The position numbers and the translations under genes were made by a program. From Picochlorum sp. SENEW3 (Eukaryota): DNA of 64,000 bases. Below the pieces are notes generated by a model. The model was not told the DNA's origin. It ran no database searches and saw only the letters and a list, made by a program, of their open reading frames with translations. Location of the stretch: contig CP120458.1 of the NCBI GenBank assembly GCA_034226945.1, positions 1 to 64,000 on the forward strand, given 5' to 3'. How positions within the stretch are numbered: position 1 is the first letter of the stretch; each line of letters begins with the position of its first letter. Positions 14,238 through 54,537 of the stretch are shown here, piece after piece.

Positions 14238-14238
14238 T

Positions 14239-16471: not shown

Positions 16472-16741
16472 TCAATTGGGACATGCGGTGACCAAGGTTT
16501 GTGGTCGCCACACAAATGCCCGATCTGGCAGTTCGCACGGTTTCTATGGGTATATGAAAGACTCGACAGCGCCACGGACCCGGCGAAACAGAGCTCAGCG
16601 GACCAGCAGCGCGTGATTTCTTATCCCAATTATCCCTTATCCCTTTTTAGCCAGTCCTGGTGACCGGTGAGAGGGATGCTTGGACCGGACGCATTAGTCG
16701 ACTAATTTCTCGAGGGGAGCCACCGGGCAGAACCCCAGTAG

Positions 16742-17074
16742 AAGAACAACCTGGAGCCACCCTACACAGACAACATGTGAGATTCTCTAGAGAAAGAGGT
16801 ATAATAATACCTGTGAAATGAATAAATAAGGAAAAGACATCATGAAACAAGAATGAAATGGAAACAAATCGTCGTCTTCACAACAACAACAAGAAGCAAG
16901 CTGAGGCAAGCACTGGAGTAACGTTGCACGAATGCTGGAGCAACTATCTCAGTATCATCAGTATGCATGGCACGTTGTCTTACTTAGACTACATGTGATG
17001 CAATGAGCATAGTAGGATAGTACTATATAAATACAATTGCGACGCTTCTTTGGGGAAGATCTCGACGTGTTTTA
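16742..17074 (+). repeat. Partial unit X arm
   Basis: Aligns with 14568-14855 and 40345-40660 (actggagtaacgttgcacgaatgctgg...). Confidence 0.85.
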
Positions 17075-17391
17075 TGTGGCAGCGTACATTGCCAGTCGTG
17101 GCCTGGATTTCCTTCGCAGGTTACACAACGTACTGCCAATACACTCTCGTGTCGTTGCCAACACAGAGCGTTCAACCTTCACACGCAGCGAGGTTCGATA
17201 GAAGAGGATGGAGTAGAATACCAACCAATGTACAGAGGGTTCTCTCTTCCTTCACAAGATAGTTTGAATTAGAAGTTGTTACATGAGAATACATCTTCTC
17301 AGTATATGAAATTGACCATGATGACCAGATCTCTCCTAGGGATCTCATCTCCCTAGATGTTGACGAGAGATCTCCTCCTACAGGGACATAG
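17075..17391 (-). mobile_element. Near-complete solo gypsy LTR (lacks the first 12 bp)
   Basis: Reverse complement of the LTR. It carries variants of the 54647 LTR (ctatgtccc, gatgtattc, tctactcc, cctcgctg, aggaaatcc). Confidence 0.95.
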
Positions 17392-17418
17392 AATACAATA
17401 AAAAAACCCGACCAAAAG

Positions 17419-17567
17419 GTTATTTGCCGGTTACTTGCCGGATACTTGACGGTTACTTGCCGGATACTTGCTGGATACTTGCCGGATACTTGCTGGATAC
17501 TTGCCGGTTACTTGCTGGTTACTTGCCGGTTACTTGCCGGTTACTTGCCGGTTACTTGCAGGTTACT
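17419..17567. repeat. 11-bp minisatellite (TTACTTGCCGG)n, ~13 copies
   Basis: Direct reading: ttacttgccgg / atacttgctgg variants. Confidence 0.95.
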
Positions 17568-17639
17568 TTGTCGTGGTCATACATTTTTATAGTCCTCATT
17601 TAAAGACGCCCAAGGTGCACATCACCTTCACCCCACTGA

Positions 17640-17885
17640 AAACCCATACCAGAGACAATGTCCACTCTTCTCGCTTTGCACATACATTGATATTATATAA
17701 ATACATCTACACAAAAACGCGCAGGACTGGACATTGTCTTTGACACCACCAAACACGCGCTGGAAGCTCGGTCATACTCACCACCGGTGTGGCCACTTCA
17801 ACCCGCCGAATGACCATGCCAGAGACAATGTCCACTCTTCTCGCTTTGCACATACAATGATATTATATAAATACATCTATACACG
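17640..17885. repeat. ~1.5 monomers of the 170-bp satellite C
   Basis: agagacaatgtccact at 17651 and 17821; same family as 37908-38880. Confidence 0.9.
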
Positions 17886-19970
17886 AATGCTGGAGCAACT
17901 ATCTCAGTATCATCAGTATGCATGGCACGTTGTCTTACTTAGACTACATGTGATGCAATGGGCATAGTAGGATATATAAAAATACAATTGCGACGATTCT
18001 TTGGGGAAGATCTCGTCGTGTTGAAAGACTGCTCCACAGCTCTGTCCTCCTCCACCTGTGTGTGCTCCACATATCCAGGCGCTCCCATCAGAAGGGGTCT
18101 TCCATCGGAGGAGTAGTAGGAGAGGAAGAACAACAACGAAAAAAGAAACTACCATCATATCCCCGGTCAAATTTCCCTTGTGATGGGAGATGAAAAAAAT
18201 CACGCTGAGTGTAGCCGAACGGGTGCCTTAGAGCCGGCTCTAATACCATGGTCGCGCTTTTTTATTGTCTTCATTTACGGAGGGACACGCCGGAAAAAGA
18301 AAGAAAAAAGGCCGGCGTCATCCCACTGTCCCTGCTGTATAAATGCACCATCTGGCACCTTGCATAGTTTTTCTTTGGACACATAGAACACTTGGTAGTA
18401 GCACCACAGATGTGACCCGAAACAGAAAACGCACTCAGCCATCTTTTTGCTGACTACGCATCATGTGGCCTCGGTGACCCCACACCCTTGCCACTCACTG
18501 GCAGTGCATAGCAGCATTGGTTGTTGGCATTGGATGATTGGACAAATATAACAATATTGAAGGCCATTTCAGTCGGTGCCGAGTCGAATGGATCTCACCG
18601 ACCGACGTTGGTCCATTCCGATCGCGTCGCGACGGTTGGGACGAAGACGCCCAGAATATTCCTCCATGGACATGAAGGAGCATCATTCTTGATTTAAAAT
18701 TATTTATCAGTCGAAAGAGCCGACGATTGACCACCACGGAGCACAAGAGGGGTCCAACAACAACCGTTCCACGGGAATGTCAGGACGACAACAATCACAA
18801 CGGTGCCAATAAGCCACGACCTCTTGTCCTAGTGGTTCCTACCCTCTATCTTATATTGATATATATGTATCCCTTCAACAATCAAACTCACAAAGTTTGC
18901 TTTGCCCAGAGGTTGTTGTGAATTCTGTTGGGACGCGAACTACTCCTGATGCTGGCGAGCGGGGAAGCTCTTTACACTGCTAGTTCCTTCTCATCAAGTC
19001 CATATGGATGCCTAAACTCGGCAGGCCACGGGCGAAAGCTCTCAACCTTCGAGTCTGAGGCAACTGCTTGTGCTTTGACTCCTGGCCCATTACAAAAACA
19101 TGCGGTGACTAAGGTTGGTCATCGCCACCCAAATGCCCGATCTGGCAGTTCGCACGGTTTCTGTGGATACATGAAAGACTCAACAGCGCCACGGACGCGG
19201 CGAAACAAGACTCAGCCGACCAGCAGCGCGTGATTCGTGACTCCATTGGGACATGCGGTGACCAAGGTTTGTGGTCGCCCCCCAAATGCCCGATCTGGCA
19301 GTTCGCACGGTTTCTGTGGATACATGAAAGACTCAACAGCGCCACGGACGCGGCGAAACAAGACTCAGTCGACCAGCAGCGCGTGATTCGTGACTCCATT
19401 GGGACATGCGGTGACCAAGGTTTGTGGTCGCCCCCCAAATGCCCGATCTGGCAGTTCGCACGGTTTCTGTGGATACATGAAAGACTCAACAGCGCCACGG
19501 ACCCGGCGAAACAGAGCTCAGTCGACCAGCAGCGCGTGATTCCTGACTCCATTGGGACATGCGGTGACCAAGGTTTGTGGTCGCCCCCCAAATGCCCGAT
19601 CTGGCAGTTCGCACGGTTTCTGTGGATACATGAAAGACTCAACAGCGCCACGGACGCGGCGAAACAAGACTCAGTCGACCAGCAGCGCGTGATTCGTGAC
19701 TCAATTGGGACATGCGGTGACCAAGGTTTGTGGTCGCCCCCCAAATGCCCGATCTGGCAGTTCGCACGGTTTCTTTGGATACATGAAAGACTCAACAGCG
19801 CCACGGACCCGGCGAAACAGAGCTCAGTCGACCAGCAGCGCGTGATTTCTAATCCCAATTATCCCTTATCCCTTTTTAGCCAGTCCTGGTGACCGGTCAG
19901 AGGGGTGCCTGGACCGGACCTATTAGTCGACTAATTTCTCGAGGGGAGCCACCGGGCAGAAACCCAGTAG
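17881..19970 (+). repeat. Unit X copy ending at ...CCCAGTAG
   Basis: Collinear with 47093-47318 plus 50353-51772 and with 36096-37246. Confidence 0.9.
19099..19848. repeat. 153-bp tandem repeat B (5 copies), subterminal in unit X
   Basis: acatgcggtgac recurs at about 19099, 19251, 19404, 19557 and 19710. Confidence 0.95.
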
Positions 19971-22807
19971 AGGATCTCGAGGACAGCGACGCTTCTGATG
20001 ATGAGGAGGCCGACCCAGACGAAATTGTTACACCTACTAATGAGCGCTTCCGGTGCACCCAGGGTTCGCATTTCAAAAGTTTTCTCATGGCAGTGTTGGG
20101 TGAGGAAGAAGGAAACAATATTGGTCAGGCAAGGGAAGACATGTGTGAGGAAGATGAGGCACCTTGCACTTTGCTTCAGCTAACCTCTGCACTGCTCGAG
20201 CTAGAAACAAAGCACGCTATATCAAAGGAGGCGATGCAGGACATCTTGAGCATAGTGCGAATGGGGAGGAGAAACTATGACAGGATGATCATCCCACCAT
20301 CAATTCATCTTCTGAGGAAGACCATGGGTGTTCCAGACCTCCAAACTGTCGAATACCATAAGTGTCCCTGCGGATACATCTACAAAAATGCTGTATTACC
20401 AAACGAAAGGAATAAGGACGAAGAATGTGGAGCGGGATGTGGTAGGACGAGGTTCAAGGCAGATAGCTGTGGGAGCCCAAAACCTTGGCAGCATTTTTAC
20501 TACTATGGCGTCGAGAATTGCATCAGGAGTCTCTTTTCTTCCCAGAAATTTCGAAATTCGAGGAACAAGAGCGTCGAGAGTGATCGCGCAGGAAATTCAG
20601 TCTACAAGTCTGCATGGTTCAGATGGCTGACAGAAAAGGAACCCAGTGCAGGAGACAACGTGACCAGTATTTGGTCCATCGGCATTGATGGATCTCAGCC
20701 ATTTGGAAGAATGGCCCATTCTTGCACTTTGATTGTATTGAAGTGTGAAGATATGGACTCGGAAGGCCGTTACCTAAGTTGTAACAGTAGGCTCCTTGGA
20801 ATCATTCCTGGTCCAAAGGAGCCCAAAGACCTGAATCCCTTCCTATGCTTTATTGGTGAGGAGTTTGAGCGACTTCGATCATCCACAATGTCATACGAGT
20901 ACCAGGAATGCGATGAATCTGGTGAAGCCATCACATATTCTGGAACTCATCGGCCTGTCCTGGGATTTATTTATGCAGATGCCAAGGCAAGAGAAAAGGT
21001 CCATTTGTGCTTCCCAGGGATTGCTATCAAAGGCTGTTATTTCTGCTGGCAGCATGCCTCACAAGTTCTGGAACAAGAAGAAGGGACGTCTCGCAAGCGA
21101 CGATTGTTCACAGGCTACGTGGACAATGATGCAGCAACGCATGTCGATGGCCTTAATGAACAAGTGTTCAAGGCCTCCAGGGTCTCCAGTGCCTCTAGAG
21201 ATGATCGCCCTGCCATCGAGAAATCCGTTATCCGACATGCCCACATGGAGCAAATATTGAATACCATGAAGAATGCTACAATACATGGTACACATAAGGG
21301 GACAACCCTGAAGGAATGGCAGAAACGGCTTCGCATTTACGATTATGCAAGTGTTTCATGTTGTCCCCACTTTACATGTCAAGCATGGCATACCCGCCCC
21401 GCTGTACCATTTCTTTCTTTTGGGACTTGCGAAGAATTTCATCAAGTACATATGGGATGGCCATGGTAAAAAGAAGACTAGTGATCCCGATAGCAGGAGT
21501 ATGAGAATCACCAGCAAGGAGACTGTTATGCGATTGGAGAAAGGAATCATTCTGAGCAACTCTTTCAACCGCCCGTACTCGTCGATAGAGTACTGCAATG
21601 GTTGGATCTGCGAGGAAGTCAAAGTTTTTATAGAAGTGCATTCGTGCGCTCTCTTCAATGAGGAGGTGACGGGCGTTCCAGTGCTCACACCAAAGGCCAT
21701 GGAAGCTTGGGGACATTTGAGGAAATTCACCATGCATCATATCAGCCATGGAGAGGGCTACAAACTCGAGCCATCGTCAGCCTTGGAACATCTCAAAGAA
21801 TTCTCCAGGATATGCCAGGAAGAGAAGGCATACGAATTGCTGACGCCCAACCTTCACACAGCCAACTGCCTCCTCCACCATCAGGAGAACTTCCTTGGCC
21901 CACTGGACCAGATGTCAGAACTCTGGGTGGAACGGGCCATGCGTCTTGTTTCTTCAACGAGTTGTATAAATGTTCCGGAATCAACTTTGGCAAAGCGATA
22001 TCTCATTAAAGCTGCTTTAGAGAGAGCAAAGCAGGAACTTGGGCCAGCTGACCAGAGTGCCATCCCTACATATGCCCCAAATCGACAACGACTTGTCTCA
22101 GGGATGATGTACGACCTGCAACCGCATGCAACGTATTATCTTCGCGGGAAAGGGTCGGAGCAAAATGTAACCGGTTGCATCCAGGCCCGAGATTCTGCCA
22201 AGGATAAACTGAAGGCGTCTGTAGAGGAAGAGAAGGTGAATCTCCTCACAGAGTTCCATGCAAAACACAAGAATGAAAGGCCGAGAGAGCCGCAAAAAGA
22301 TATCATATTGTACAGCCATTCATCGTGCAATATTTTGGTGGATGGCAAGGGCTTCAGTATCAATCGTTCTATGAGACACGGGACAAAAAGAGGCGGTCAC
22401 ACTTTGTCTTGCTGAAGGACAAGGATTCTGAGGCTCGCCATATTGGCCTAGTGTACGACTTTATCCGCATATTCAGTCCTCGAGCACCGGATGAAGTGGA
22501 AAGACACGCGGTTTGTGGGATATACAAGACTTCGAGGATGAATTGCCATGGATCCACGGTCTACACAGTTCAAGAGTTCAAAGGGGAGAGCCCATGGAAG
22601 GATGACAAACATGTGACAACAGTACCAATCACAGATCTCGTGTGTCAGGTTTCTTGTTTCGAAATGATCAAAAATGGTTGGAAGGGAGAATGGCCCCACC
22701 ACAAACTTGTAGAAGGCGGCAACAGAAAAGAAATGGACAAAATGCTTGCCTTCTTCCCGACGAAGGGGTCCACCTTCGCAACAGCGGAAGATACTGCTAT
22801 CGAATAA
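19971..22807 (+). pseudogene. CMC/EnSpm (CACTA TnpD/Transposase_21-like) transposase, 5'-truncated, two frameshifts
   Basis: YHKCPCG...C..GCG..RF Zn motif; IGIDGSQPF...HS; LLGIIPGPKEP..LNPFL; DAKAR.K...GCYFC; YHFFLLGLAK; TPNLH...H; WVER. Spread over ORFs 19889-21469, 21345-22415 and 22325-22807. Possible right terminus ...ATTTTCTGTG at 23130 (CACAG-type). Confidence 0.85.
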
Positions 22808-23877
22808 TGATAAACATATAATGTATTGAAATTCCGCGACAGACAGCGTTGAATCGTGGCTATCGTGCAGGAATCGGTGCCTTGTGGTGGCCTCCGGAAT
22901 TTCCTTAATAAGTACCACAGGTCGACGCGTCGACGTACGTCCAGGCTCCTCAAAATTTTCACACAACCCAATTTACTCAGAGGCCCATAACTTTTGGAAT
23001 ATCGCACCAAATCTCCCCATTTTTGTTTCAATAGACATATTTTCTTACCATCTTTCCGGTGAACGGAACGAAATAATAAAATACCCCTCAGGAAAATTTG
23101 GGATTTAAGGAGGCCAGCACATTTTCTGTGAGTGTATCAAACGGAAATTTACTCCTCTTCCACCCCACCCCCACCCCCCAAAAAGAAAAGGTTTCAGGCC
23201 GCTCTTAGTTGATTCCGTGGTTCCCGTCTAGGTGATTCTCAGAATCCAGTCGGTAGGCGCTCGAAAAATGAGAAAAGCTCGAAAAAATAAAATCGTCAAT
23301 AGTGCGTCCAAATGACTTCAAATCTCTAGTTCTGTAATAGTTCTACAATATAGATGTAATTTAGACACCGTTTGTGGAGTTCGAAGTCAAAAATCACCGT
23401 ATGGCTCTGTGTGGGGCATGCCCCCAAGGCTGGTCTGGTCAACATCACCGTCAGACCTCTGTCAACCGCGATCTATTCGAGCATGTATAGATAAAATGGC
23501 TCCTCATAGCCCCTTCTTCTCTTTTGGAGCCTTACAGAGTCTATGGGGTCAATTGCACAATTTGAATTTGGCCGACTGGGGAGTCATGGCTGGATCCAGT
23601 CCACGGCCATCAACGATGGTCCATGATCGAGTTTGGCCCCAAAAGCCCGTCAATCGACTCCTTTTGACGAGCTCTATCGCATGGTGGCCTCGAAAAGTGC
23701 GAATTCTTCACGAGTGATGAGATGGACGGCATTCTAATTTTTTGGGCACATCATCGCGAAATCCATTCGCTCGGGGACGGGAACCACGGAATCAATTAAG
23801 AGCGGCCTCACAAATATTGAATATTGCATTGGAATAATTATTTAAACAATCTTTTCGATATCGACAAGCGAAATCAA

Positions 23878-26800
23878 ATGTCATCGATTAGTGATTCGCA
23901 CAGAAGCAATATTATGTGGAGTGGGACACGAAACTGGGATTCAGAAGAAAGCCCACAGTTTGGCGAAGTTCTCAATTTCTTAGCTGGAAATGGATGCCCC
24001 ATTGATGCAACGAATTCTGATGGGAATACCGCTTTGATTCTTGCCTCAGGATGTGGCAATTATAACAATGAAAGCTCTCCTGCCATAGCCTCTGAACTGG
24101 CTGATATAATTGGTCTTAATACATTAAGTGATGCATCCCCCGATGAAAATGATGATAATCGTGATGTTTTGATTGCGTTGATGCGTGCATCTATAAGCGA
24201 AGATAATGATCTTGTCAATATCACATTGATTGGGGTACTAGATGGTGATCTAAATCTAAAGAATGATCAAGAAAAGACAGCCTTGATGCTTGCCTGTGAG
24301 AGAAGACGAGGACGTATTGTCCGTGCATTGATCAGAGCAGGCGTGGATTTGAATCTGCAGAATGATGAAGGAAAGACAGCCTTGATGCTTGCCTGTGAAA
24401 GCGAAAACATTTTCGTTGTCCGTGCATTGATCAGAGCAGATGCTGATGTGAATCTGCAGAATAATCAAGGAAATACGGCCTTGATGCTTGCCTCTGGAAG
24501 CCAAAATTTTTTAGTTCTCCGTGCATTGATTAGGGCTAATGCTGATGTGCATCTGCAGAATGATCAAGGAAAGACAGCCTTGATGCTTGCATCGGAGAGA
24601 GGACATGGGGATATTGTCTGTGCATTGATCAGAGCAGATGCTGATGTGAATCTGCAGAATGGCCGCAACTCAACTGCGCTGATGCTTGCTTCGGCCAGGG
24701 GAAATCTTGAGATTGTTGATGCACTGATTGGAGCTAATGCTGATTTGAATCTGCAGAATGATGAAGGAGAGACAGCCTTGATGCTTGCGTCGGAGAGAGG
24801 AGATGGGGATATTGTCCGTACATTGATCAGAGCAGATGCTGATGTGAATGTGCAGAATGATCAAGGAAAGACGGCCTTGATGCTTGCGTCGGAGAGAGGA
24901 CATGGGGGTATTGTCTGTGCATTGATCAGAGCAGATGCTGATGTGCATCTGCAGAATAATCAAGGAAATACGGCATTGATGCTTGCCTCTGAAAGCGGAA
25001 CCGCTTTTGCTGTCCGTGCATTGATCAGAGCAGATGCTGATGTGAATGTGCAGAATGATCAAGGAAAGACGGCCTTGATGCTTGCGTCGGAGAGAGGACA
25101 TGGGGGTATTGTCTGTGCATTGATCAGTGCAGATGCTGATGTGCATCTGCAGAATAATCAAGGAAATACGGCATTGATGCTTGCCTCTGAAAGCGGAACC
25201 GCTTTTGCTGTCCGTGCATTGATCAGAGCAGATGCTGATGTGCATCTGCAGAATGGCCGCAACTCAACTGCGCTGATGCTTGCTTCAGCCAGGGGAAATC
25301 TTGAGATTGTTGATGCACTGATTGGGGCTAATGCTGATTTGAATCTGCAGAATGATGAAGGAAATACGGCATTGATGCTTGCCTCTGAAAGCGGAACCGC
25401 TTTTGCTGTCCGTGCATTGATCAGAGCAGATGCTGATGTGCATCTGCAGAATGGCCGCAACTCAACTGCGCTGATGCTTGCTACAGCCAGGGGAAATCTC
25501 GAGATTGTTGATGCACTGATTGGGGCTAATGCTGATTTGAATCTGCAGAATGATGAAGGAAAGACAGCCTTGATGCTTGCGTCGGAGAGAGGAGATGGGG
25601 ATATTGTCCGTGCATTGATTAGGGCAGATGCTGATGTGAATCTGCAGAATGACCGCAACTCAACCGCGCTAATGCTTGCTTCAGTCAGGGGAAATCTCGA
25701 GATTGTTGATGCACTGATTATGGCTAATGCTGATGTGAATCTGCAGAATGGCCGCAACTCAACTGCGTTGATGCTTGCTTCAGCCAGGGGAAATCTTGAG
25801 ATTGTTAATGCACTGATTGGGGCTAATGCTGATTTGAATCTGCAGAATGAAGGAAAGACAGCCTTGATGCTTGCGTCGGAGAGAGGAGATGGGGATATTG
25901 TCCGTGCATTGATCAGAGCAGATGCTGATGTGCATCTGCAGAATAATCAAGGAAATACGGCATTGATGCTTGCCTCTCTCATGCCCAGAGTACATGGAGA
26001 TATTGTCCGTGCGTTGATTGGGACAGATGCGGATGTGAATCTGCAGAATGATCAAGGAAATACGGCATTGATGATTGCTTCAGCGAGAGAAAATCTGGAG
26101 ATTGTTGTTGCACTGATTGCGGCTAATGCTGATGTGAATCTGAGAAATGATCAAGGGAATACGGCATTGATGTTTGCCTCGGAGAGAGGACACGGAGATA
26201 TTGTCCGTGCATTGATCAGAGCAGATGCTAGTGTGAATCTAGCGAATGAACAAGGAGATATAGCCTTAGTCTTTGCATTTCAACATGCAAATCTAGCAGT
26301 CGCATATGCCTTGCTTGAGGCTGCTGCACATCTGAATGTGCTAAATATTGAACTATATACTGCTTTGATTGATGTGAATCTGAGAAATAATCGTGGGAAT
26401 ACAATCTTGATGCAAGCCTCGGAGAGAGGACATAAAGATATTGCTCATGCATTGATTAGGGCAGATGCTGATGTGAATCTGCAGAATGACCGCAACTCAA
26501 CTGCGCTGATGCTTGCTTCAGCCAGGGGAAATCTTGAGATTGTTGATGCACTGATTGGGGCTAATGCTGATTTGAATCTGCAGAATGATGAAGGAAATAC
26601 GGCATTGATGCTTGCCTCTGAAAGCGGAACCGCTTTTGCTGTCCGTGCATTGATCAGAGCAGATGCTGATGTGCATCTGCAGAATGGCCGCAACTCAACT
26701 GCGCTGATGCTTGCTTCAGCCAGGGGAAATCTTGAGATTGTTGATGCACTGATTGGAGCTAATGCTGATTTGAATCTGCAGAATGATGAAGGAGAGACAG

Positions 26801-28647: not shown

Positions 28648-28956
28648 TATTTAGGGCAGGTCAACAATTCAAGGATTAACGAATTTTTGCTAGATCATAT
28701 GTGCTAATGAACTCATCTTGAAGTTTTGGCTCTGTACATTTGTCACGCCCTATACAATCGGTTGGAAGGATACGATGCCCTCACAATCGATTGATATTGA
28801 CTTGCAAGTCAATTGATATCAAGTTAACATGTGATGATCACAACTGCTGGTTGGATTTCTTTCTCAGCCCTTCGCCCATGAGATCCCTGCTGCAGCGGTC
28901 TACATTTGTGCTAGATTTCCCAGTCCGAGCATTTTCAAGACCTTCTCTCAATGCAC

Positions 28957-29430
28957 CTGTGTGAGCATGGTTTTGTGTATGCATCCTTCATCATCAAACA
29001 AGCAGAAGGGAGGAAAGAACCATTTGCATTCATGACACAATATCTCAGAAAAGCCCCGGAATACGTCATTTACGACAATGCATGCAACTTGCAGGACTAT
29101 TGCTTGAGCAGGGCACCATTGTTCTTCATGCACACCAAATTCTTCGTGGATGGCTTCCATTGGAGGAACCACAAAGCATGCAGTCTTGGATATATGATTA
29201 ATGGGTACGAAGACAAGTGGTTACAGGCGTTAAACACGCAAGTTGCAGAGCAGAACAACTCATCCTTGAAGAACCTGAAGGCCATGATGAGCAGAATGTC
29301 ACAGAAATCGTTCATGACGCTCCTGAAGTCATTCATGTGTCATTGGAGTTACCACAAGCTAAAACGAATGAATACCAAGCAGAAAAGAAAGCAGAGGAGG
29401 AACGGTTGGCCGTCCTCAGGTGCTATGTGA
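28957..29430 (+). pseudogene. KDZ-type transposase C-terminus (copy 1, 5'-truncated)
   Basis: CEHG.VYASFII..AEGR.EPF, YDNACNL, VDGFHW.NH..CS and NTQVAEQ.N motifs; closely similar to 34061-34523. Confidence 0.88.
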
Positions 29431-30684: not shown

Positions 30685-31275
30685 GAAATCCCTTGTTTTT
30701 CGCCTCTTTGTGGCTCAAAATCCCTGCAACTTTGATACTTTATATATGAAAAGCGGCAGTATTGCGCGAATTGCACACAAAAGCGCAATATGCTTGAGAA
30801 ACAAGGACAATCGCACGTGCGTTTGAGCACTATTCAAACTGTCCTGGCATTGTCAGCCAAACGATTTAACATGTATTCAAACATACACTGTTGCAATATC
30901 ATGTACAACAAATATATATACACTACATACTATCACTTCCTTTTTTCTATGTTTTTATTCCACAGGCCGGCCGTGATAACCGTAGGGACGGCCCCCTTTG
31001 AAGGGGACCAAATCCGGCCAAGTCAAAAAAATTGAATGCACCCCAAACCTTCGCTCCGGCAATTCCAATTCATATATTATGTTTAAATAAGTCATTTTGG
31101 CGGCAGTCATGGGTCGGTCAACCCGTGGCCGAGTCAACCTTGGCACATTTCCCGAGATGGTTGAGTTTGAGAGGGGCCGAAAACGTAGCCAGAGGTGGGT
31201 ATGGTGGTTCTCCCCCGTGTTGAATGGAATTAAATTCAAATTTCAGCGGCATTCTGTCGGAGTACAGCCCGAATC

Positions 31276-37246: not shown

Positions 37247-37257
37247 AGCCTTCCTGT

Positions 37258-43900: not shown

Positions 43901-44249
43901 TTACTGCCTCAACAGGGCACCAGACTTTTTCAAATTTACTTTGTTTGTTGTGGATGCTTTTCATTGGGTGAATCACGTCGCCTGTGCCAGGAGTTTTTCC
44001 ATTAAATTATAAAGTGAGATGAAGGACATTGCCAGCATGACGCAGAACACGGAGGCGTGCGAGCAAATCAATGCTGCCATGAAGAGGTTCAAACCCGTTC
44101 TTTCCAGGATGGGCCAGCGGCCATTCATCGCCCTGCTACGCCTATTTCTGACACAGTGGAACATCTCAAAGTACCATAAACTCATTCGATACAGCATGGC
44201 GCGCCCAAGGCCGGAGCAGGTGCAGGTACATGCGCCAGATCAGCAGTGA
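40992..44249 (+). pseudogene. KDZ-type transposase copy 3 (two frameshifts, one in-frame TAA at 44010-44012)
   Basis: CSC..F...ECVH; CPICQDSPDVIIMDGT; CKH.F.KPG.RTGG; CQHG; EGR.EPF; YDFAC; VDAFHWVNH; EACEQ.N. Confidence 0.87.
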
Positions 44250-45585
44250 GGGACTGCCGAGTGGCCTGCTGTTTCAGCAGGGTTTTCCGCCGTCCACAGC
44301 GTACCATGGCGCGTTTCGATGCGTCAAATACGTCCCGATTCACTATTTGAGTTGTAACGATGCCAAATCGGTGCAGAACGCGGGGTTGAAAATCGGCTCG
44401 ATGCCGCCATGACCCTCTGAAAGCCTGCTTTTTTGACCGCAGGAATGGCACCCAGCCTTGTCGACCTCCGCCCCGAGCCGCTCTCGCGTCCATATTGGCA
44501 TCTTAAATACTCCAATATGCTTGATTATGAGCCGATGGAGCGTTCGATCGAGTGTAGACCGCCCTGGCTCGCCTTCTTGTGGAGACATGACACGGTTCGG
44601 ACGGCGACGAACCGCACAGCATCATGTGCTCAAGCATCCGATGGTATCTTTTTACACATTTAATTGATGGTTTTAGGCGATATCCGCGACTGTTGAGATC
44701 CCCTGCGCGCAATCGCGCATGGCAAGGAATTCAAATTTCGAGCAGGTCGTTGCGCGGAGCACGGCCGATACGGAGCTCGCGACATAATCTGCGTCGCAAA
44801 TAATGGTCAGTGATATATTTGGATAAAGTATTGAATCCACCCTGCTAGCATATGATAGAGGCCTGGGTGGCGACCCGACTTTTCGATCTGGCATTTGAAT
44901 TCCCTGTCTGCAGCAAGCTCGGGTAAACTCCGGTGTAGGGCATATGGCGAGTCCCCAGGATATAGGGTATATGCATGGTGCGATTTTATGTAGGTCATGT
45001 CGATGTTCAGAGCCTAGGCGGATGAAAACCCGCGCCAGAGGAGCCGGTCTGTCATCATATTTGATTGGCATGAGGAAAAATACCCTATCTGGCACAGGAG
45101 ATTGACGTTGGTCTCCCATCAAACGCGTTTTTCCTGTTCAATGGGAGACGAACGTCAATTTCAGAGCAACCCCGTGGAAGAGAGGGATGGCCAGGCAGGC
45201 TCTCCCTCTCCCATCACAGGACTTCAATGAAGGCTGCCAACTTTCAGGACCAGGATGGCCGCCTTATGGACGCAAATACAAAGTGATTACGGTAGTATAA
45301 TATATATTGATGCGTATAAAAGCCAAATGAATGCTGCGGAGAGGGCAGTGCTGCCGTCCCCGTAAGAAAGTGTGTCATGTGCATGCAAACATCATGCTGC
45401 ATGTGTGGCACAAGGCCCAATTCATGCTCATACAGCGGTTCCAATTAAAATAAGACTTGCACTCCATTCCAATATATTACCACACACATATGATATATAT
45501 TTTCCAGCCTTGTGGCGAGAATGGTCACAACGCATGTGCAAAGCCAACAATGTTGCACTGCTGCAAGTGATCCAAACTATGCAAC

Positions 45586-46806
45586 TTACTGTCCATCCTC
45601 ACCTTGCACAAGCTGCTCAGGCGGCATGTCGATATTCAACGCTTCTTCCTCTTGATAGGTATTAATAGTTTGTAGATGAGACAATAGTGTATCCAGCGCC
45701 TGTTCATGAGATGTCACAACAGCTGCATCTTTGCCTTTCTTCCTGAGTTGCCCCTTCAGGGTGCTAATGATGTCATCAAGGTTTGATACCGACACGAAAG
45801 ACACACCTTTCGATGCATTTTGGCATGCATATCTTTTGTGATCGAGCAACCACTCCTCCTCGCCCTGGCTGGCATCACTCAATGCCCATGTTGCATGCTC
45901 CACATCGCTCCTGTGCAGGTTGAAGTCTAGGCTTGGCCTCCTCACCAGCGAGTTGGTGTCCCGCTTCTTGTTCCAGCTCGGGAGAAGGCGATTAAGAATC
46001 TCAATCAGTTCCTTCTTCAGGTAGTACATCCCGCTTTGTATGGGATTGCCCTTTTGGTCTTGTGTTCCATCTGGAACTGTCACAGAGATCAGGGTGGCAC
46101 AAGCATCTCCACTGCCCCCAATGAACCTCTTCGCAACGCCCAGTTCTATTGAATTATTGATTTCCTCCATTTCTAGCAAGCACTCCTCACCGGCAGCGGG
46201 CGTTGCAGGCGTCACCTGCTGGTGGGGTGCTGGGGATACCCCATCACTGTCATCCCTCATGAATGGCAGAGCAGCCAATGTACCAGCAGCCTCGCTGAAA
46301 TCGACACTGAACTTGCCAAATATTGTAGAAACCATCTGTATATCTTCCATGATCACCTCCAAATTATCCAAGTAGTTCTGCACCACCCCTTTGCCCTCCT
46401 CAACCTGCTGCATCTTGTTTGCAGCCTCCTCTTGGGCCTGCTCCAAAGAGGCCACTCTGGCATCTGCTCGCGCCAGCTTGTCAAACGTAGACTTGTAGTC
46501 GAACAGCAGCTGCCCAAGGAGCTTGTTGCTGAGCTCTGGGCACATCTCCTTGGCATCCAGAGCGCCATTGTGGAGCATCTCATACTGCTGTTCAGGGTTT
46601 TCGGTGCCGGCTTTATAGATGTGGCACCAATCGCGCGTCGTCCACCTTTTCACACCAGAATTTGGTTGATTTATAGATGCTGTATCGCGCGCGTTTTGCT
46701 CCAAGACAGCATCGAATGCGCTGCAAAGTCGCTTCGAAGCTCGACCAACCTCTGGGTCCATTGGCGCATGTCCACGCGACATACCTCTCACAGCGCTAAA
46801 ATCCAA
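45586..46806 (-). CDS. KDZ partner protein copy 3 (~400 aa, divergent)
   Basis: YEMLHNG.L, a coiled coil (ARVASLEQAQEE), DQKGNPIQSGMYYLKKEL and SFVSV align with the other two partners; same convergent position. Confidence 0.8.
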   Translation of the reverse strand: MDFSAVRGMSRGHAPMDPEVGRASKRLCSAFDAVLEQNARDTASINQPNSGVKRWTTRDWCHIYKAGTENPEQQYEMLHNGALDAKEMCPELSNKLLGQLLFDYKSTFDKLARADARVASLEQAQEEAANKMQQVEEGKGVVQNYLDNLEVIMEDIQMVSTIFGKFSVDFSEAAGTLAALPFMRDDSDGVSPAPHQQVTPATPAAGEECLLEMEEINNSIELGVAKRFIGGSGDACATLISVTVPDGTQDQKGNPIQSGMYYLKKELIEILNRLLPSWNKKRDTNSLVRRPSLDFNLHRSDVEHATWALSDASQGEEEWLLDHKRYACQNASKGVSFVSVSNLDDIISTLKGQLRKKGKDAAVVTSHEQALDTLLSHLQTINTYQEEEALNIDMPPEQLVQGEDGQ

Positions 46807-47318
46807 GAAAATCTCTCCAAATTCCCCAACAAACTTTATTAATACTTATAAACGACAACGCGCGATACAAGAAACCACAAAATCGCAGCAAGCTCGCGAC
46901 CCGTTCGAATGGCGTCTCTGAACACCACACACAATTTGATTCAAATTTAATTGCACAGTAGATTAAGCTGCTTCAGTTCATTGCTATGCTGAAATTTCAA
47001 TCAATCAAAATGTGTGTCGGCCACACAAGATTGATGACTTGGACACTATATCCCCTTTGTGTTTTTACACTATTTAGAACATGGGGAATCTCATCCTCTC
47101 CACCTGTGTGTGTGCTCCACATATCCAGGCACTCCCATCAGAAGGAGTCTTCGATAGGAAAGAAACACCAAAAGTGAAACTACCTAACCATTCATCGGTC
47201 AAACGTCTCTTGTGATGGGAGATGAAAAAAGCACGCTGAGTGTGGCCGAGCGGTTTAAAGCGTGTGGGCTGGCCCATGGTCGTTTTTTATTGTCTTCATT
47301 GACGGACACACACTCCCG

Positions 47319-50300
47319 GGACCCGATTCGTTAGGGCGGGAGGGACGTTACGCATTTTTCTCTCTCTACAGTCCATTATATTATATTTCCTCAAACAAAT
47401 ATACAGTGTATTATTAAACCTTATTTCAATGCGCAGATTTTGGTATTACTTTGAGGCACAATGATGCACTGTACGCGAAGAACGAGGCTATCGAGTGGAA
47501 ATGGCTTTGTTTGCCCGGTCGCCTCTACCCGTTGATGGGCGTAGATGTCCAAAACGCATAATGTGAAAACAACAACGATTACCAGCAAAACCATTGTTCA
47601 TCATGCTCTCGGGTTGCCATGGCCAAGAAAACTTTGTAGTTGAGATAATGTTTTACCATGGCCACGTTGGATCCCACTGATCTAGAAGTTCACCTCGCTC
47701 TTGGGTTTGAAAACTTGTGCGAATTCCTTCGGAACAAAATGCGACGGCATGGACTCAACAAGAGCACGTGGGTAGCTGAAAAATTCAAAATTGTTGAAAG
47801 TACTTGGAGAAGTGCTACGTTTTAGATCACTGCGTGGTTAATACGGACGTGTTACCAGGTCTTCTGCTCATGTGTTTCGAACACCCAGTCTTCGACACTC
47901 AGGCAAGAATAGCCACAGAGATGACCATGAATGAAATATTACAGCCAAATAATCGATTATTGACACAAATATCTTGGATAACGCGCTGGAACGCGTGTAG
48001 ATGAACCAATGGAACTCCTGCAGAAGCTTCTGGCCTTAAGGCCAAGGCCAACCTTTGGAATGAAACTGTACTCTGAGACAGCAAAAGACCGTGATGGTGG
48101 CCAAAACAATTGATAGCCCTGAAGTAAATTCATATATTTTATTTAATATGATGAAAATTATCTTGCTCCGTTAGATGCAGTACGTACTGTATACAGTTGA
48201 GGATCAAGTGATCATCATCAGTCACTTGCTCTGACAAGAATCTCCATTGTGCATAGTCCTGCGGGTGATCTGATGCTGCGAGTGGCTGATACCTTGCTGG
48301 ATGATATTGAACGATGGTTCAGTGCGAAAGAGGGTGAGCTGACGAGGGCTGGGACATGTTGCAAAACGTCAGAGTCTCCAGCTGAAGAAGGTGGTGTGAC
48401 ACTTCATTTGAATGACTGAAGTTGACACAAATTGAAAGAGGAGACGAGAAAAACAATTCTGTTGCATTTTGTAATCACTTGATAAGCATTTACCAGCAAA
48501 TGGATCCAAATTGCGTTCCTAACGAGGCTTTCAATGGGTGTTGGTTTGCCGGTTGGATGCCCACCAATCAGTGGGCACTCGCGATGTGCAGTTTATATTA
48601 AAAATTCGCCTCCATCGAATCTTGTGCTATATATTGCTAGCTTATGGGGTTCTTGCTCGATGAAATCTCACGCTAAGATTCATCTCATTTGGCACCCACA
48701 TAGCATGAGACAGATTTTGAACTCAACAGGGTTCCAGAGTTCCATGGCAAAGATATTCGGTACAAAATGCACAATCCTAGAAGTATCTGCACAGTTACAT
48801 GTACAGATGTGCTCGTCGAAAAGTCCTTGGTGATCTGAGGCCAACTCGGAACATCCAAATTTGAATGCGGAATGACACATCATCAATACAGGCGTAAGGT
48901 CATGCCTGAAAGCTCCTCACTTCCATGCCCCAGAAATATTATAAAAGATATTGAGCAGAACGCGTTTCTTATGACGATAATCATATATATTGGGCATTCA
49001 CCAGTTAGAGCTTGGCGGTGAGAGCACCCAGGAATAAAATTTAGAGCCAAGAATCCATGAAATACACAATGCTGTTCATCTGGATCACCTCAAATTGTAT
49101 AAGAATATAAGAAAGGTCTCAAAAGTGTTTTTTCTAAAAATAATCTGCACCAAGCCTGCGGAAAACTCGAAAAATCTAGAGTCCCTCCTCAACCGACTTC
49201 TGGTCAAACAATATAATGAGAATTGCGTGCCTTTAGTCGTGGCATCGCCCCCATTTGATACCTCCACTGATATATTATCATTCATCATGTGCCTGTCATT
49301 CAGCAGAGGGCTATATATCTGAATAGAAGTTGATGCATTTGCTCATGGGTTCCTCACAGTCCATGCAATGAATTCTTCGAGGAAAAGGCTCGCACACTGG
49401 CCAATATCAACTCTATCCTAATTTCAATACCAAAACGTGTAATTAACAACACAATTTATGCTTGTCGGGAGCAGCGTTGGCACGGTTGCACCAGTTTCCA
49501 GCTCTCGGTCACATTGAAGTTCAGACACTCGCTTCAATTCGTGCATTTAGATCATATACACAAGCCACGAGCATTTTGGCGGATTAATACGTTCATGTAG
49601 ACCATATCACGCGTGAATTCCCATACGCTGAGCCAAGGAAAGCAGTCGACGGGAATCAAGTTGTCCAACACAGGAATTTCTCCAGATTCGGCTTGCAGTG
49701 CAGATAACTGCGTCCCTCCCCATATAATAGTATTATCATTGTATTTTTTGTGGTGTAGATGGCAAATCATGGACAATCGTGGTCACGAGGGACTCACTAC
49801 CAATGTCAGAAACGGTTGGAGCATCTGCGCGGTCTCATCCACGACTGACACTCCATTCTGCACACCAGAAATCGTGTATTAGTATATTTAAAGCATAATT
49901 AATGGTCCAACCATGCCAACGCACCGATATACTCGTTCATCGTGCGAGTAACCACCCGATGTTCGTTGGTGACTTTCTGCGGAATCGCGCAGGCGTTCTA
50001 CCAGCCCTACATCTTCTTATAATTATTATTATACGTGATTAATTACACGCGAGAATTGTTAAGGAAAATAAATTAGTGTGGACGACGTGGTGACGATTCT
50101 GCGCATGTAACCAACCGTCGGAATCTCCTTTTCCCTTCTACACCTATCAAAAGCATGTCTGGACCGTGGATTCAGAATCGCCCTGGAAACATTCGCTTCG
50201 TTCTCCGCGTACAATGCATCATTTTGCCTTCAACTAATGTCAAAATCTATATATTGATCTGAGGTTTAATAATATATTTGTTTGAGGAAATATAATGGAC

Positions 50301-50352
50301 TTTAGAGGGAGAAAAGTGCGTAACGTCCCTCCCAGCCTAACGAAGCTATTCC
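47319..50352 (-). mobile_element. Degenerate Mutator-like element (MULE)
   Basis: 9-bp TSD ACACTCCCG (47310-47318 and 50353-50361); GG...CC ends; ~90-bp imperfect TIRs (ttcgttagg..gggagggacgttacgca...). Minus-strand remnants DATTKGTQFSLY and a SWIM-like CTCNCAD among many stops. Confidence 0.9.
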
Positions 50353-51772
50353 ACACTCCCGAGAGAGAGAGGAAGAAGCCCGACCTCATCCCATTGTCCC
50401 TGCTGTATAAATGGACCATTTGGCACCTTCCATAGTTTCTTTGGATACATAGAAGACTTGGTAGTAGCACCGCAGATGTGACCCTAAACAGAAAACAATG
50501 CACTCAGCCACCTTCTTGCACACAACGCATCATGTGGCCTCGGTGATCCCACACCCTTGCCACTCACCGGCAGTGCATAGTAGTATTGGTTGTTGGTATT
50601 GGATGATTGGACAAATATAACAATATTAAGGGCCATTTACATCAGCGCCGCGTCGAATGGACCTCACGAACCGAATGGTCCACTCCGATCGCGTCGCGAC
50701 GGTTGGGACGAAGACGCCCAGAATCGTTCCTTTGTGGGCATAGGGGAGCGTCATTGTTGGTTTAAAAATATATATAAGCCAAAAGAGCGAATGGACGACC
50801 ACCGTGGAGCACAACAGGGGTCCAACAACAACCGTTCCACGGGAATGTCATGACAACACTCGCAACGGTGCCAACAGGCCACGACCTCCTTTTCTCAGGT
50901 TTCCCACCCTCTAGTATCTTATATTTATATATCTTCCAAGAAACTCCTGCGCTCCCTCCAATCAAACTCACACGGGTTGCTTTGCCCAGAGCTTGTTGCG
51001 AATTCTGTTGTGAACTTTGGGGGGTGAATGCGACGCGAACTCGCCTACTGCTGCTGGCAAGGGATGATGGGAAATCTCTTTACACTGCTAGTTCCTTCTC
51101 ATCAAGTCCATATGAATGCCTAAACTCGGCAGGCCACGGGTGAAAGCTCTCAAACTTCGAGTCTGAGGCAACTGCTTGTGCTTTGACTCCTGGCCCATTA
51201 CAAAAACATGCGGTGACCAAGGTTGGTGGTCGCCACCCAAATGCCCGATCTGACACCTCGCACGGTTTCTGTGGATACATGAAAGACTCAACAGTGCCAC
51301 GGACCCGGCGAAACAGAGCTCAGCCGACCAGCAGCGCGTGATTCGTGACTCAATTGGGACATGCGGTGACCAAGGTTGGTCATCGCCGCCCAAATGCCCG
51401 ATCTGGCAGTTCGCACGGTTTCTGTGGGCACATTAAAGACTCAACAGCGCCACGGACCCGGCGAAACAGAGCTCAGCCGACCAGCAGCGCGTGATTCGTG
51501 ACTCAATTGGGACATGCGGTGATCAAGGTTGGTCATCGCCGCCCAAATGCCCGATCTGGCAGTTCGCACGGTTTCTGTGGGCACATTAAAGACTCAACAG
51601 CGCCACGGACCCGGCGAAACAGAGCTCAGTCGACCAGCAGCGCGTGATTTCTAATCCCAATTATCCCTTATCCCTTTTTAGCCAGTCCTGGTGTCCGGTC
51701 AGAGGCGTGCCTGGACCGGACGCAACAGTCGACTAATTTTTCAAGGGGAGCCACCGGGCAGAAACCCAGTAG

Positions 51773-54537
51773 CTGTGGAGCATCACATTAACTTGGTCCC
51801 TGGAACAAAAGCCAAGGTGCAACCGTTGAGGAGGATGTCTCCTACGTTGCTGGGAGAGCTTCGTAAGCAGTTGCAACAGTTCCTGGACAAGAGGATTATT
51901 GAACCATCCACGTCGCCTTTTGGTTCCAATGTGTTGTTCGTAAAGAAGAAGAATGGTGATCTGCGCATGTGTGTGGATTACAGGATGCTCAATCAGCAGA
52001 CAGTCAAGGACAGTTATCCCTTGCCAAACATTGATGAGTTGTTGGATCAACTGTCTGGAGCCAAGTACTTCACAGCACTGGATCTCAATTCGGGGTATCA
52101 CCAAATTCCTGTAGCAAAGAAAGACAGACACAAAACAGCTTTCAGAACGAGATATGGCTCATATCAGTTTCGAGTGATGCCATTTGGATTGACCAACGCT
52201 CCGGCAACGTTTCAAGCCTGGATGAATAAGCTGCTCAAGCCACATATGGATGCCTTTGTGGTGGTGTTTCTGGATGATATTCTCATCTTTAGCAAGACCA
52301 AGGAGGAGCATAAGGAGCATCTTCGGACTGTTTTGAAGTGTCTAAAGAAAAACAAAGTATATTTGAATATGAAGAAGTGCGAGTTCTTTCGACAGAACAT
52401 CAAGTTTCTAGGATTTGTGGTGACATCTGAGGGCATCAAGCCTGACCAGAGACTCGTGCAAAAGATAGCTACGTTTCCAAGACCTGCCAACAAGAGGCAG
52501 ATTAGATCCTTTTTGGGAGCTGTGGGATTTTACAGAAGGTTCATTAAAGATTTTGCCAAGATTGCCCTGCCTTTGACAGCATTGACAAAGCAGGAGGTGC
52601 CTTTTGTATGGACCCAGGAGGCTCAGCAAGCGTACGAAATTCTCAGGAACGCTTTGACGACGTATCCAGTCTTGAGATTGGTGGATATGTCCAAGCCATT
52701 TCATGTGTTCACAGATGCTTCGGAGTATGCCGTGGGAGGAGTTCTCACACAGCTGGTGGATGGCATGTATCATCCTCTTGGATATTATTCGAAGAAGCTG
52801 GAAGGAGCCGAGCTCAGATATTCTGTGTATGACAAGGAATTTCTTGCTATGAAACTCACAGTGTGGCGTTTCAGGTGTTACTTGCTGGGGCAGCCAAAGA
52901 ATGTGGTTTTTACTGATCACAGGCCCTTGACTCATTTGCCCACTCAAAAGGATCTGAATGGTGTGCAAATTAGATGGCTGAACAAGCTGGCTGATTTTAA
53001 TCTAGATATTCAGTACATTGAGGGAAAGAAGAATTGTATTGCTGATTTGCTCAGCAGACCTCCAGAAGTGGTATTGAACTCTGTGGCCGTGGGCTTGCAG
53101 CTGGATAAAGCTCTGCTAAACAGATTGAGGCAGTTGTACAGGACAGACAAGTTTATTGGGTCGATTCGAAAGTGCTGGAAGCAACAAGTTCCAGTACCCT
53201 CCATTCTGAATCACATCAACATGGATGCTGTGACTGAGCACAATGGATTGCTGTATTATGGCCCATCACCTCAGCACCCAAAACGGTTGATCATTCCAGA
53301 CAATGCTTCGTTCAAGACTGAGTTGTTGATGCTGCACCATGACAGCATGTTCAGTGGTCATCCTGGAAGGGACAAGATGTGCAAGGATCTGGCCAGGTAC
53401 TACTTTTGGCCTCGAATGCAAGATGATGTGGCCAAGTATGTCAAGGAGTGTCCTGTCTGCCAGAGCGTCAAGAGCCTGAATCAACCTGCTGCTGGATTGT
53501 TACAGCCATTGCCTGTTCCTGCCAAGCCTTGGGACCAGGTTACAATTGATTTCATCACAGATTTGCCATTGACTGCCAGAAAGAATTCTCAGATTGTAGT
53601 GATGGTGGACAAGTTCACCAAATGTCTCACCGTTGCACCAGCACCTGCGTCGTTGGATGCCAAAGGTACTGCTTCCATCTTTTTGCAGTATGTGTATCGT
53701 TTGCATGGCATGCCGTCGAGCATTGTGTCAGACAGAGATCCAAAGTTTACGAGTCAGTTCTGGATGGAACTCATGAGCCAGCTGGGTTGCCAGAAGTTGC
53801 AATCCACTGCCTATCATCCACAGACGGATGGGCAGACTGAAAGAGTGAATCGAGTGCTGGAAGATATGATTCGGTGCTACTGTGATGAATACACGAATAC
53901 GTGGGATGAATTGTTATGGCCGCTGGAGTTTGCTTACAATGATTCGTATCAGCAATCCACCAAGTTTACTCCATTTTATTTGAATTATGGTCGTCATCCC
54001 AGGAAGCCCCATACCATTGCTTTAGGTCTGGAAGACACTGAGAAGACTACAGCGAGCTCTGAATATTTGGATGTGTTATTTCGTTGTCATCAGGCTGCAA
54101 CCCACAACATGAGGGTGGCACAACAGAGACAAGCCCAGTATGCCAACAAATCCAGAAGAGTGGCTGTCTACAAGGAAGGAGATCGAGTGCTGCTGTCCAC
54201 TCATAAATTGAAATGGGAAGGAAAGCAATTCAAAAAGCTACAACCTCGCTGGATTGGACCATTCACAGTTGTGAGGGTGATTCCCAACAATGCTGTTGAA
54301 TTGAATTCCAAACAACAAGGCTATGCTTTCCACCCAGTCGTCAATGTGGATCGAGTGAAGCATTATCATTCTAGAATGAATATTGATGCAATGAATCATC
54401 AATTGGAAAGAGAATGGGATGATTCTACAGCAGAAAACACACAGGAATTTCCTCAAAAGGACAAGGTTCATACTTCCGACGACACCACTATGAATTCAGA
54501 TGATGATGATTTGATCATTCCTTTGGATGATGAATAG
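51773..54537 (+). CDS. Pol (RT-RNase H-integrase), uninterrupted but lacking gag and protease
   Basis: ORF 51691-54537; its first ~27 codons come from the unit X end. Confidence 0.9.

Follow-up and report, generated by a model that had tools for sequence, protein, structure and literature searches.

In IS91/ISCR elements, and in Helitrons whose end is bypassed, one end is precise and the other variable, and adjacent DNA can travel along; a conserved target tetranucleotide or an A|T site lies at the precise end, and an HUH enzyme is involved. In trebouxiophyte algae, Zepp forms nested clusters of 5'-truncated elements resembling long interspersed nuclear elements (LINEs), which lie in one orientation with fixed 3' ends and variable 5' ends. 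Rearrangements of the Ac/Ds type involve two recognisable termini and show 8-bp target-site duplications (TSDs) at the breakpoints. One report describes deletions and tandem duplications anchored at Ac termini in maize (PMC3744419), and parts of two other papers give HINE/DINE-1 elements a left module, a central tandem repeat of ~150 bp and a right module with a palindrome (PMC4067079, PMC7492417). Here we report on a stretch of 64,000 nucleotides from Picochlorum sp. SENEW3 (contig CP120458.1, positions 1 to 64,000, assembly GCA_034226945.1), the whole of which we call the window, and on a repeat in it, X, whose right end recurs to the base beside unrelated DNA. Self-comparison of the window delimits X as a non-coding unit of ~3.3 kb without its nested elements; the long form, X-long, starts with L (~1.08 kb), continues through segments a, b and c into 1 to 5 units of a 153-bp tandem repeat, and closes with a unique 123-bp tail. 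X is best explained as a discrete non-coding, transposon-like repeat whose terminus is conserved across copies and related genomes. We lean, tentatively and with rather less than even confidence, toward the view that its right end was repeatedly cut exactly and joined to nearby breaks, giving two deletions and one duplication.

The right end of X and its neighbours

Three copies of X, here X1, X2 and X3, end at 16741, 19970 and 51772 (junctions 1, 2 and 3). The 17-mer GGGCAGAAMCCCAGTAG occurs three times in the window, always on the + strand (16725-16741, 19954-19970 and 51756-51772), against a mean of 0.02 matches in shuffled sequence, and none of 100 shuffles held three. When the three ends are aligned, the final 8 bases are invariant and similarity ceases at one common column: pairwise identity between copies is 54-57 of 60 over the terminal 60 nt of X and 12-20 of 60, which is the chance level, over the first 60 nt beyond it. 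The flanks start AAGAAC at junction 1, AGGATC at junction 2 and CTGTGG at junction 3, and the three right partners are mutually unrelated. A base-precise end beside unrelated DNA at these three positions, as proposed in a preliminary description of the stretch, is confirmed by the 17-mer, the alignment and the 60-nt identities. The terminus reads ...CCCAGTAG, with GTAG as its last bases, usually followed by A. This next base is A in five of the six readable contexts (junctions 1 and 2 and the external proteins P0004, P0005 and P0012 treated below) and C at 51773. The end may possibly be GTAGA, with the copy at 51772 1 nt short.

At junction 1 the partner is another X copy (16742-17072, + strand), entered ~1.08 kb inside X-long and called segment a'; its positions 16906-17072 match 14685-14855 at 90%, and 16927-17071 match 17882-18022 at 95%. 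The entry point corresponds to continuous L-a sequence in two other X copies. At junction 2 the partner is a transposase-like open reading frame (ORF) lying in three frames (19971-22807, + strand), and tblastn with residues 6-946 of a related protein, P0001, covers 19967-22804. At junction 3 it is gypsy B (51773-54975, + strand), which extends from between the protease and reverse transcriptase (RT) regions to the exact 3' end of the long terminal repeat (LTR). Positions 51769-54982 match 11359-14573 of a second element, gypsy A, at 97.9%, with Pfam matches from RT to integrase, and the breakpoint corresponds to gypsy A position 11359-11362. Sequence overlap at the joints is 2 nt (AG) at junction 1, 0 at junction 2 and 1 nt (G) at junction 3, and there is no filler. 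Three unrelated targets, namely the interior of X, a transposase-like ORF and a 5'-truncated gypsy element, are thus borne out.

One of these targets had been described as the inside of a CMC transposase, and here both position and name need revision. Junction 2 falls at residue 6-7 of a 946-aa relative and at about residue 20 of a 956-aa relative, and the partner is short of only its first 6-20 codons and the 5' non-coding end; relatives of this protein measure 905-956 aa. Pfam finds nothing in the ORF or in any of the three full-length relatives, and the sole basis for the CMC label is that its neighbours in a protein atlas, which are language-model neighbours (score 0.96), carry PF02992 Transposase_21. 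The CMC-type assignment is accordingly a supported lead rather than a demonstrated membership. P0001-P0003 represent a transposase-like family of ~950 aa with no Pfam match, and one relative is labelled eukprot jgi/Picre1.

The left halves of the partners, reported missing beforehand, are indeed absent from the window in all three cases. No second copy of gypsy 8662-11358 exists in the window, and there is no gypsy 5' half in the 51 kb upstream of junction 3. For the 23 nt found just before the junction-2 position where the partner is uninterrupted, the window offers 0 matches at up to 3 mismatches, and the sequences to the left of L in X1 and X3 are not the missing halves of the partners. The flanks of X2 are not contiguous in the intact junction-2 partner. 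Nor, as had also been stated, does the window hold an inverted partner end, a TSD or a matching left half, whereas ordinary nested elements in the same window keep their direct duplications (gypsy A 5 bp, Z2 9 bp, W 10 bp).

Sensitive BLAST of 54976-57500 and 22808-23830 against the window gave no common sequence after the right partners. We considered that fragments of transposable elements (TEs) had been captured before one common original flank, and this is unsupported, as the right partners share no following sequence. The open frames that cross junctions 2 (19880-21469) and 3 (51682-54537) run 30 codons into the X tail, where they share one frame that has no ATG. A spliced-leader or exon fusion at these two junctions was rejected because the tail has no ATG and GTAG is common to all copies; an origin of the partners as retro-copies was rejected because they have no poly-A and gypsy B retains a whole LTR end. 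For the CCC-spaced part of the tail, a telomere-like origin was considered and dropped.

Public data extend these observations. Parts of the region occur in eighteen rows of sequencing runs, drawn from 8 studies: four runs share one organism label and contain 0.53-0.75 of the sampled words, and fourteen runs contain 0.34-0.46, these being metagenomes (lake, marine, gut, sediment) or runs under two further organism labels. The contigs of 4 runs were compared with 19700-23700, and the statements that follow from this comparison hold among the contigs listed; the runs are labelled X1, X3, X15 and X16, labels that do not refer to X copies. A 751-nt contig present in the metagenome runs X1 and X3 aligns with 19971-20176 and extends upstream by 545 nt that are not X; the junction-2 partner is thus uninterrupted elsewhere, at ~97% identity. 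In one further contig of run X1, the X tail extends to 19972, beyond which 95 nt of different sequence follow. The summed word depth in run X16, which is not a copy number, is 2241 for the repeat, 528 for the tail and ~90-120 for the flank. Exact-pattern scans with the tail and the 153-bp repeat found 0 loci in metagenome_contigs, genome_contigs and viral_contigs.

As a proxy for a survey of junctions, a profile of the 30-aa peptide of the tail, read in the frame that stops 1 nt short of the end, was searched against 1.84 billion representative proteins. Eight proteins scored at E<=0.001, and six were inspected (all but P0008 and P0010): P0004, P0005 and P0006 are collinear with repeat and tail, and the other three, P0007, P0009 and P0011, are repetitive proteins that are not related. 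A word search that started from P0005 gave 4 proteins from 10 candidates, of which P0012 was new, and the P0006 cluster has a second member, P0013; all relatives of the tail peptide come from ENA metagenome contigs of 1.3-36 kb. The tblastn similarity of P0004-P0006 and P0012 to X ceases at 16743, 19972 or 51771, and after ...GEPPGR(N/T)PV each of them diverges from X and from one another. P0004, P0005 and P0012 have D or E as the residue past the X end, and therefore the base after GTAG is A there; P0006 has E instead of the final V, which makes its junction ambiguous. The same X end is found in 6-7 contexts across independent assemblies, three of the junctions being resolved to the base and four at the level of the peptide. 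The right end of X is a real recurrent boundary, and it occurs in further contexts outside the window.

The same proteins say something of X itself. In P0004 and P0012, segment b stands directly before one repeat unit, segment c is absent, and the frame is open through b, repeat and tail. A protein search of the 'longer' type with P0012 returned 0 matches from 456 candidates. Similarity of the P0006 flank to gypsy (E=0.11-0.2) was treated as chance. The P0012 flank resembles the A-rich start of L (E=0.018-0.042, without composition correction), and the tail may adjoin an X head in a relative, which we take as a lead only.

Within the window, all X copies and fragments have a single shared orientation, and X has no ORF with a family match. 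The unit is longer, and built of more modules, than the preliminary description suggested. X1-long comprises 7573-8661 and 14568-16741 and is split by gypsy A. Its left part (7573-8661, + strand) holds L and the first bases of a, with 7573-8633 matching 39232-40339 at 80%; its right part (14568-16741, + strand) holds a, b, c, a piece e, one repeat unit (16470-16618) and the tail (16619-16741), and is collinear with X2. Piece e, 235 bp long (16246-16480), is an extra in X1 just before the repeat unit; it recurs alone at 57543-57775 with 90% identity and may be a small separate repeat. X2 (17882-19970, + strand) consists of a'' (17882-18054), b, c, 4.9 repeat units (19098-19847) and the tail (19848-19970), and relative to X-long it is truncated on the left, being without L and part of a. 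X3-long spans 39232-51772 and is split by two nested elements, Z2 and W, into three pieces on the + strand: L and a up to the Z2 insertion (39232-40690), segment b (47094-47306, matching 18045-18281 at 74-76%), and c with 2.9 repeat units (51206-51649) and the tail (51650-51772) at 50353-51772. A further copy, X4 (36096-37260, + strand), has b and c only and stops against an inverted block of a 153-bp satellite.

The number of repeat units is thus 1 in X1, 4.9 in X2 and 2.9 in X3, and copies agree at 91-94.5% in repeat and tail, 80-86% in segment c and ~80% in L. The L-a continuity is present in two X copies. The left boundary of L lies at 7540-7573 and 39190-39232, in a similar place in both copies (within ~40 nt) and fuzzy, with satellite to its left in X1 and unique spacer in X3. 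To the left of X2 stands a 170-bp tandem repeat of 1.6 units (17610-17883, + strand), joined to X2 through a 3-nt microhomology, CAC. This repeat is also found at 37908-38848, hence to the left of both X2 and X3-long, and it ends at differing phases in its two contexts. The tail carries several short palindromes, including one of 14 bp located 35 nt from the end in two of the three copies and degenerate in X3; folded as single-stranded DNA, it is no more stable than shuffled sequences (z=+0.98).

Class tests and competing readings

X fits no class that was tested: it fails the hallmarks of elements with terminal inverted repeats (TIRs), LTRs or poly-A, and those of Helitrons and Helentrons/HINEs, apart from two loose likenesses to HINEs given below. 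The preliminary description had excluded the ends CTRR|T, CA and poly-A, and in this it was right, as X ends in GTAG and shows the hallmarks of none of these classes. Helitrons have a CTRR 3' end, a palindrome of 16-20 nt ~11 bp upstream and an A|T target (PMC4067079). The canonical Helitron 3' end was not found in X, which has GTAG rather than CTRR and whose sole palindrome of comparable kind is 14 bp long and 35 nt away. Read on the minus strand, X would begin with TC in five of six contexts, and the A|T site does not appear, because the preceding base on that strand is not A in at least three of the five readable cases; on the + strand the base after the X end is A, A and C in the three window copies.

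The Pfam scan covered 115 ORFs of the window, each no shorter than 100 aa, and an ankyrin ORF, and among these no Rep/helicase or tyrosine recombinase domain was found. The enzymes recognised are those of gypsy (RT, RNase H, integrase), that of the MULE domain at 61531-62550 and, below threshold, KDZ in the elements Z1 and Z2. A partner enzyme or an inverted end, for which a search had been proposed, was looked for within the window, and none is assignable to X. Rows for TadE, LRR19-TM, SURF1 and Rep_1 (E=9.9e-5) in ORF 19113-19889 were rejected as the product of summing over tandem repeats, since no single stretch passes. For the Helentron/HINE class, subterminal inverted repeats (subTIRs) of 11-15 bp were sought in the bodies of X1, X2 and X3, with a match at a conserved position over at least 9 bases exactly, or over 11 with a single mismatch, as the threshold. 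No inverted match to the tail satisfied it, the sole match of the scan being an AT-rich 11-mer in X1 only. Of the HINE layout, which places a palindrome 8-35 bp from the 3' end, X shows the central 153-bp repeat and, loosely, the palindrome 35 nt from the end in two of three copies; the TT or T-rich target is absent from all three flanks.

For TIR transposons (CMC/CACTA, KDZ, MULE, hAT), the terminal 16-mer, sought with up to 5 mismatches, has no inverted counterpart at a boundary, the 10-mer and 8-mer have none in the window, BLAST of the tail against the opposite strand gave no match, and no direct repeat links the left boundary of L with the right flanks. A CACTA terminus lacking its last two bases was rejected because no X copy has those two bases. 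As to LTR elements, X starts GAGGG... and ends ...GTAG, the sequence that follows differs from copy to copy, and there is no common primer-binding site or polypurine tract. As to short interspersed elements and other non-LTR elements, there is no tail repeat and only 1-2 A follow the end; ARAGORN found no tRNA, and Rfam gave no gathering-level match over the whole window. A long non-coding RNA row of E=0.14 in the 170-bp repeat (14500-20100, searched at E<=1) was ignored. As to the variable 5' truncation of non-LTR elements, X2 is truncated on the left with a 3-nt microhomology joint, but its flanks are not contiguous in the intact partner. In X, as in a product of the Ac/Ds type, the breakpoint lies at the terminus. 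Of the earlier interpretation, the unclassified non-coding element with a real end stands, and one-ended movement or adjacent deletion is plausible rather than shown.

Judged from sequence, end-anchored rearrangement would be the most economical reading, unproven as it is. The DNA would have been broken exactly at the X terminus, and the intact X end joined, with an overlap of 0-2 nt, to a second break nearby. For junctions 2 and 3 the second break would lie downstream in a younger transposon, the intervening DNA being deleted; for junction 1 it would lie inside another X, producing a joint of the duplication type. The likeliest cause would be abortive or one-ended transposition, in which a transposase provided in trans would cut this one terminus and shield it, without engaging a competent second one. 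A protected, enzyme-made end is suggested because the X side is never eroded. Deletion rather than insertion, enzymatic cleavage and the acting enzyme are all things that we infer.

We prefer this reading because one event per junction suffices, whereas insertion needs a second event each time. It is favoured by an X end that is fixed in all three window copies and by the fact that the other rearrangement joints, those of the 170-bp repeat, are not recurrent. Also in its favour are the absence of the partners' left halves from the window, the uninterrupted junction-2 partner in runs X1 and X3, the same X end in the outside proteins and the precedent of Ac termini in maize (PMC3744419). Relative age also enters. 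Divergence among X copies is 5.5-9% in repeat and tail and 14-20% in segment c; gypsy A, with LTRs that are 100% identical, and gypsy B agree at 97.9%, and the transposase-like ORF is nearly whole. Two of the partners thus appear younger than the X copies that they adjoin, the divergence of copies being a weak clock. Near-blunt joints, a single orientation, other joints that do not recur and young partners fit end-anchored rearrangement, and the uniform orientation of X suits local events.

Several points weigh against it. The lack of a second terminus, TIR or TSD leaves no visible pair of substrates for cut-and-paste, no enzyme is linked to X, and neither cleavage nor an empty site nor a reciprocal product has been observed. 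The sample is three window joints, and outside the window the end is known in four contexts, each from a short predicted peptide and not from DNA. The uninterrupted junction-2 partner of the other runs may be paralogous and not orthologous, and if X copies came from diverged sources, their divergence says nothing of when they arrived. The copy at 51772 is without a following A, and the X end is in this respect not perfectly invariant. The right partners have no common following sequence, and the original right neighbour is never seen. In the likely source runs X15 and X16, no contig among those listed bridges 19970/19971, which is not evidence.

The main competing reading is an ordinary insertion that later decayed, on balance unlikely and still to be taken seriously. 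X would have inserted into TEs of the island, and left halves and left junctions would later have been lost through deletions, satellite expansion and nested insertions. A fixed end beside many flanks is typical of any TE family; each of the three partners is a TE, which nesting in a compact genome would lead one to expect; and the island is heavily rearranged (LTR fragment, microhomology joint of the 170-bp repeat, cut X4, and nested gypsy A, Z2 and W). The satellite array to the left of X1 exits the window, and a missing half could lie beyond. However, this explanation requires at least two events per junction, and the second event at X3 must stop at the left boundary of L, as in X1 (within ~40 nt). 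The 51 kb upstream of junction 3 hold no gypsy 5' half, neither TSD nor TIR was found, and the copies all lie in one orientation. If X is an ordinary decayed transposon, the result is the routine annotation of an unclassified repeat.

It is improbable, in our estimate, that X represents a eukaryotic mobile element of an undescribed kind, with asymmetric ends and no TIR, TSD, poly-A or Helitron signature, for which a nuclease or recombinase would cut after ...CCCAGTAG(A) and attach the end to other DNA, permitting one-ended spread or reshuffling of the neighbourhood and seeding satellite-like 153-bp arrays. The same low standing is given to the idea that X is not mobile at all: a locally amplified segment whose edge is fragile or nuclease-sensitive, or marks where a right neighbour, since lost from every copy, once began. 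The shared edge would then stem from recurrent breakage or common ancestry. The low apparent copy number (in 3 of 4 runs the summed word depth, which is not a copy number, is in the tail just ~1.3-6-fold that in the flank), the clustering of 3-4 copies in one orientation in a single 64-kb window, and the several short palindromes of the tail agree with this. Yet at least 4 other contigs show the same end and then continue differently, an unprotected break should also have eroded the X side, which is intact in all three copies, and the tail gives no structure signal.

We regard as decidedly doubtful a co-mobilisation in which X reads through its own end, by rolling-circle replication or by 3' transduction of the retro type, and brings a piece of the donor TE with it. 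This would explain the missing halves without deletions; the central tandem repeat and palindromic right module resemble the HINE layout as parts of two papers give it (PMC4067079, PMC7492417), and the end read on the minus strand starts TC in 5 of 6 contexts. Nevertheless, the end is GTAG and not CTRR, neither an A|T nor a T|T target is present in the flanks, 35 nt separate the palindrome, degenerate in X3, from the end, and the fold of the tail (z=+0.98) lends nothing. Neither a subTIR partner nor poly-A was found, there is no Rep/helicase among the 115 ORFs and the ankyrin ORF, and gypsy B keeps its full LTR end and hence is not a copy of a transcript. That the junctions are assembly mis-joins at a repeat is very improbable, even with no bridging contig at 19970/19971 among those listed for the likely source runs, because a mis-join inside a repeat creates no new edge at the end of homology, the three copies are 91-95% alike and thus distinct enough to assemble, and the same edge appears in independent assemblies, including the run X1 contig in which the tail continues to 19972 and then into other sequence.

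If end-anchored rearrangement is true, this small genome has a resident element that produces deletions and duplications in its transposon island, and a dispersed repeat with an internal 153-bp array would be tied to satellite formation.

Other elements of the island

Gypsy A (8662-14567, + strand) is a full-length LTR retrotransposon nested in X1, with TG..CA LTRs and the 5-bp TSD AACCT. Its LTRs of 329 bp (8661-8991 and 14238-14568) are 100% identical, Pfam recognises gag, RT, RNase H and integrase, and the gag-pol frames are open over 921 and 689 aa; its insertion looks very recent. An inverted gypsy LTR fragment, which is without the first ~13 bp of the LTR, lies on the minus strand at 17075-17391, and an 11-bp microsatellite of 13.7 units follows at 17418-17568.

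Z2 (40691-47092, + strand) is a KDZ-like transposon nested in X3, with the 9-bp TSD ATCCTCTCC at 40682-40690 and 47093-47101. Its Pfam KDZ match of E=5e-5 is below the curated cut-off, as is that of Z1 (28915-36095; E=2.7e-5), and the atlas neighbours of Z1 ORF 32429-34279 have CxC5/KDZ domains. The ORFs of Z1 and Z2 share 26-31% aa identity, and each element has two ORFs of ~500 aa and a minus-strand ORF, which suggests that both may be Kyakuja-Dileera-Zisupton transposons. W (47327-50344, strand not assigned) is a 3-kb non-coding element that lies in X3 between b and c. It has inverted ends of ~160 bp (47327-47488 against 50195-50344) and starts TTCGTTAGG, and a 10-bp direct repeat, CACACTCCCG, stands 7-8 nt outside each end.

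Positions 1-7501 are occupied by a 153-bp satellite (49 units, 99% identity) that runs off the window start; the internal 153-bp repeat of X has the same period and no sequence similarity to it. The inverted satellite block at 37257-37688 (2.7 units, ~81-90% alike) adjoins the truncated X4. At 23198-23810 there is an element of ~610 bp resembling a miniature inverted-repeat transposable element, with 32-bp TIRs (1 mismatch) and a similar terminus near 57870-57900. The ankyrin ORF (23821-28647) is an open frame of 1608 aa consisting almost entirely of ankyrin repeats (at least 30 Ank_2 stretches), with a DNA period of 99/198 bp. The ORF at 61531-62550 has MULE transposase and ZSWIM-type RNase H-like domains, and the long ORFs that flank it have no family match.

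Comparison with known systems

Among one-ended rolling-circle elements, a precise end accompanies a target site and an HUH enzyme, neither of which is seen for X. Like HINE, X is non-coding, with a central repeat of variable copy number, in two of three copies a palindrome no more than 35 bp from the 3' end, and no TSD. Unlike HINE, X has no subTIRs, no T-rich or TT flanks and no RepHel nearby, and its left module measures kilobases, versus 50-100 bp in HINE. Unlike Zepp, X is without poly-A, contiguous target halves and any RT partner other than gypsy; in the manner of Zepp, X elements pile up in one orientation in a repeat island and have a fixed 3' end and variable 5' ends.

The alternative transposition of Ac/Ds differs in that X has no TIR, second terminus or TSD, and an end-anchored process at this locus, if true, would involve an element outside every superfamily. 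As in Ac/Ds, however, one terminus of X is kept to the base while the adjoining DNA is deleted, duplicated or replaced. Maize Ac/Ds and bacterial insertion sequences are well-known sources of such a process, which is rarely caught in natural sequence.

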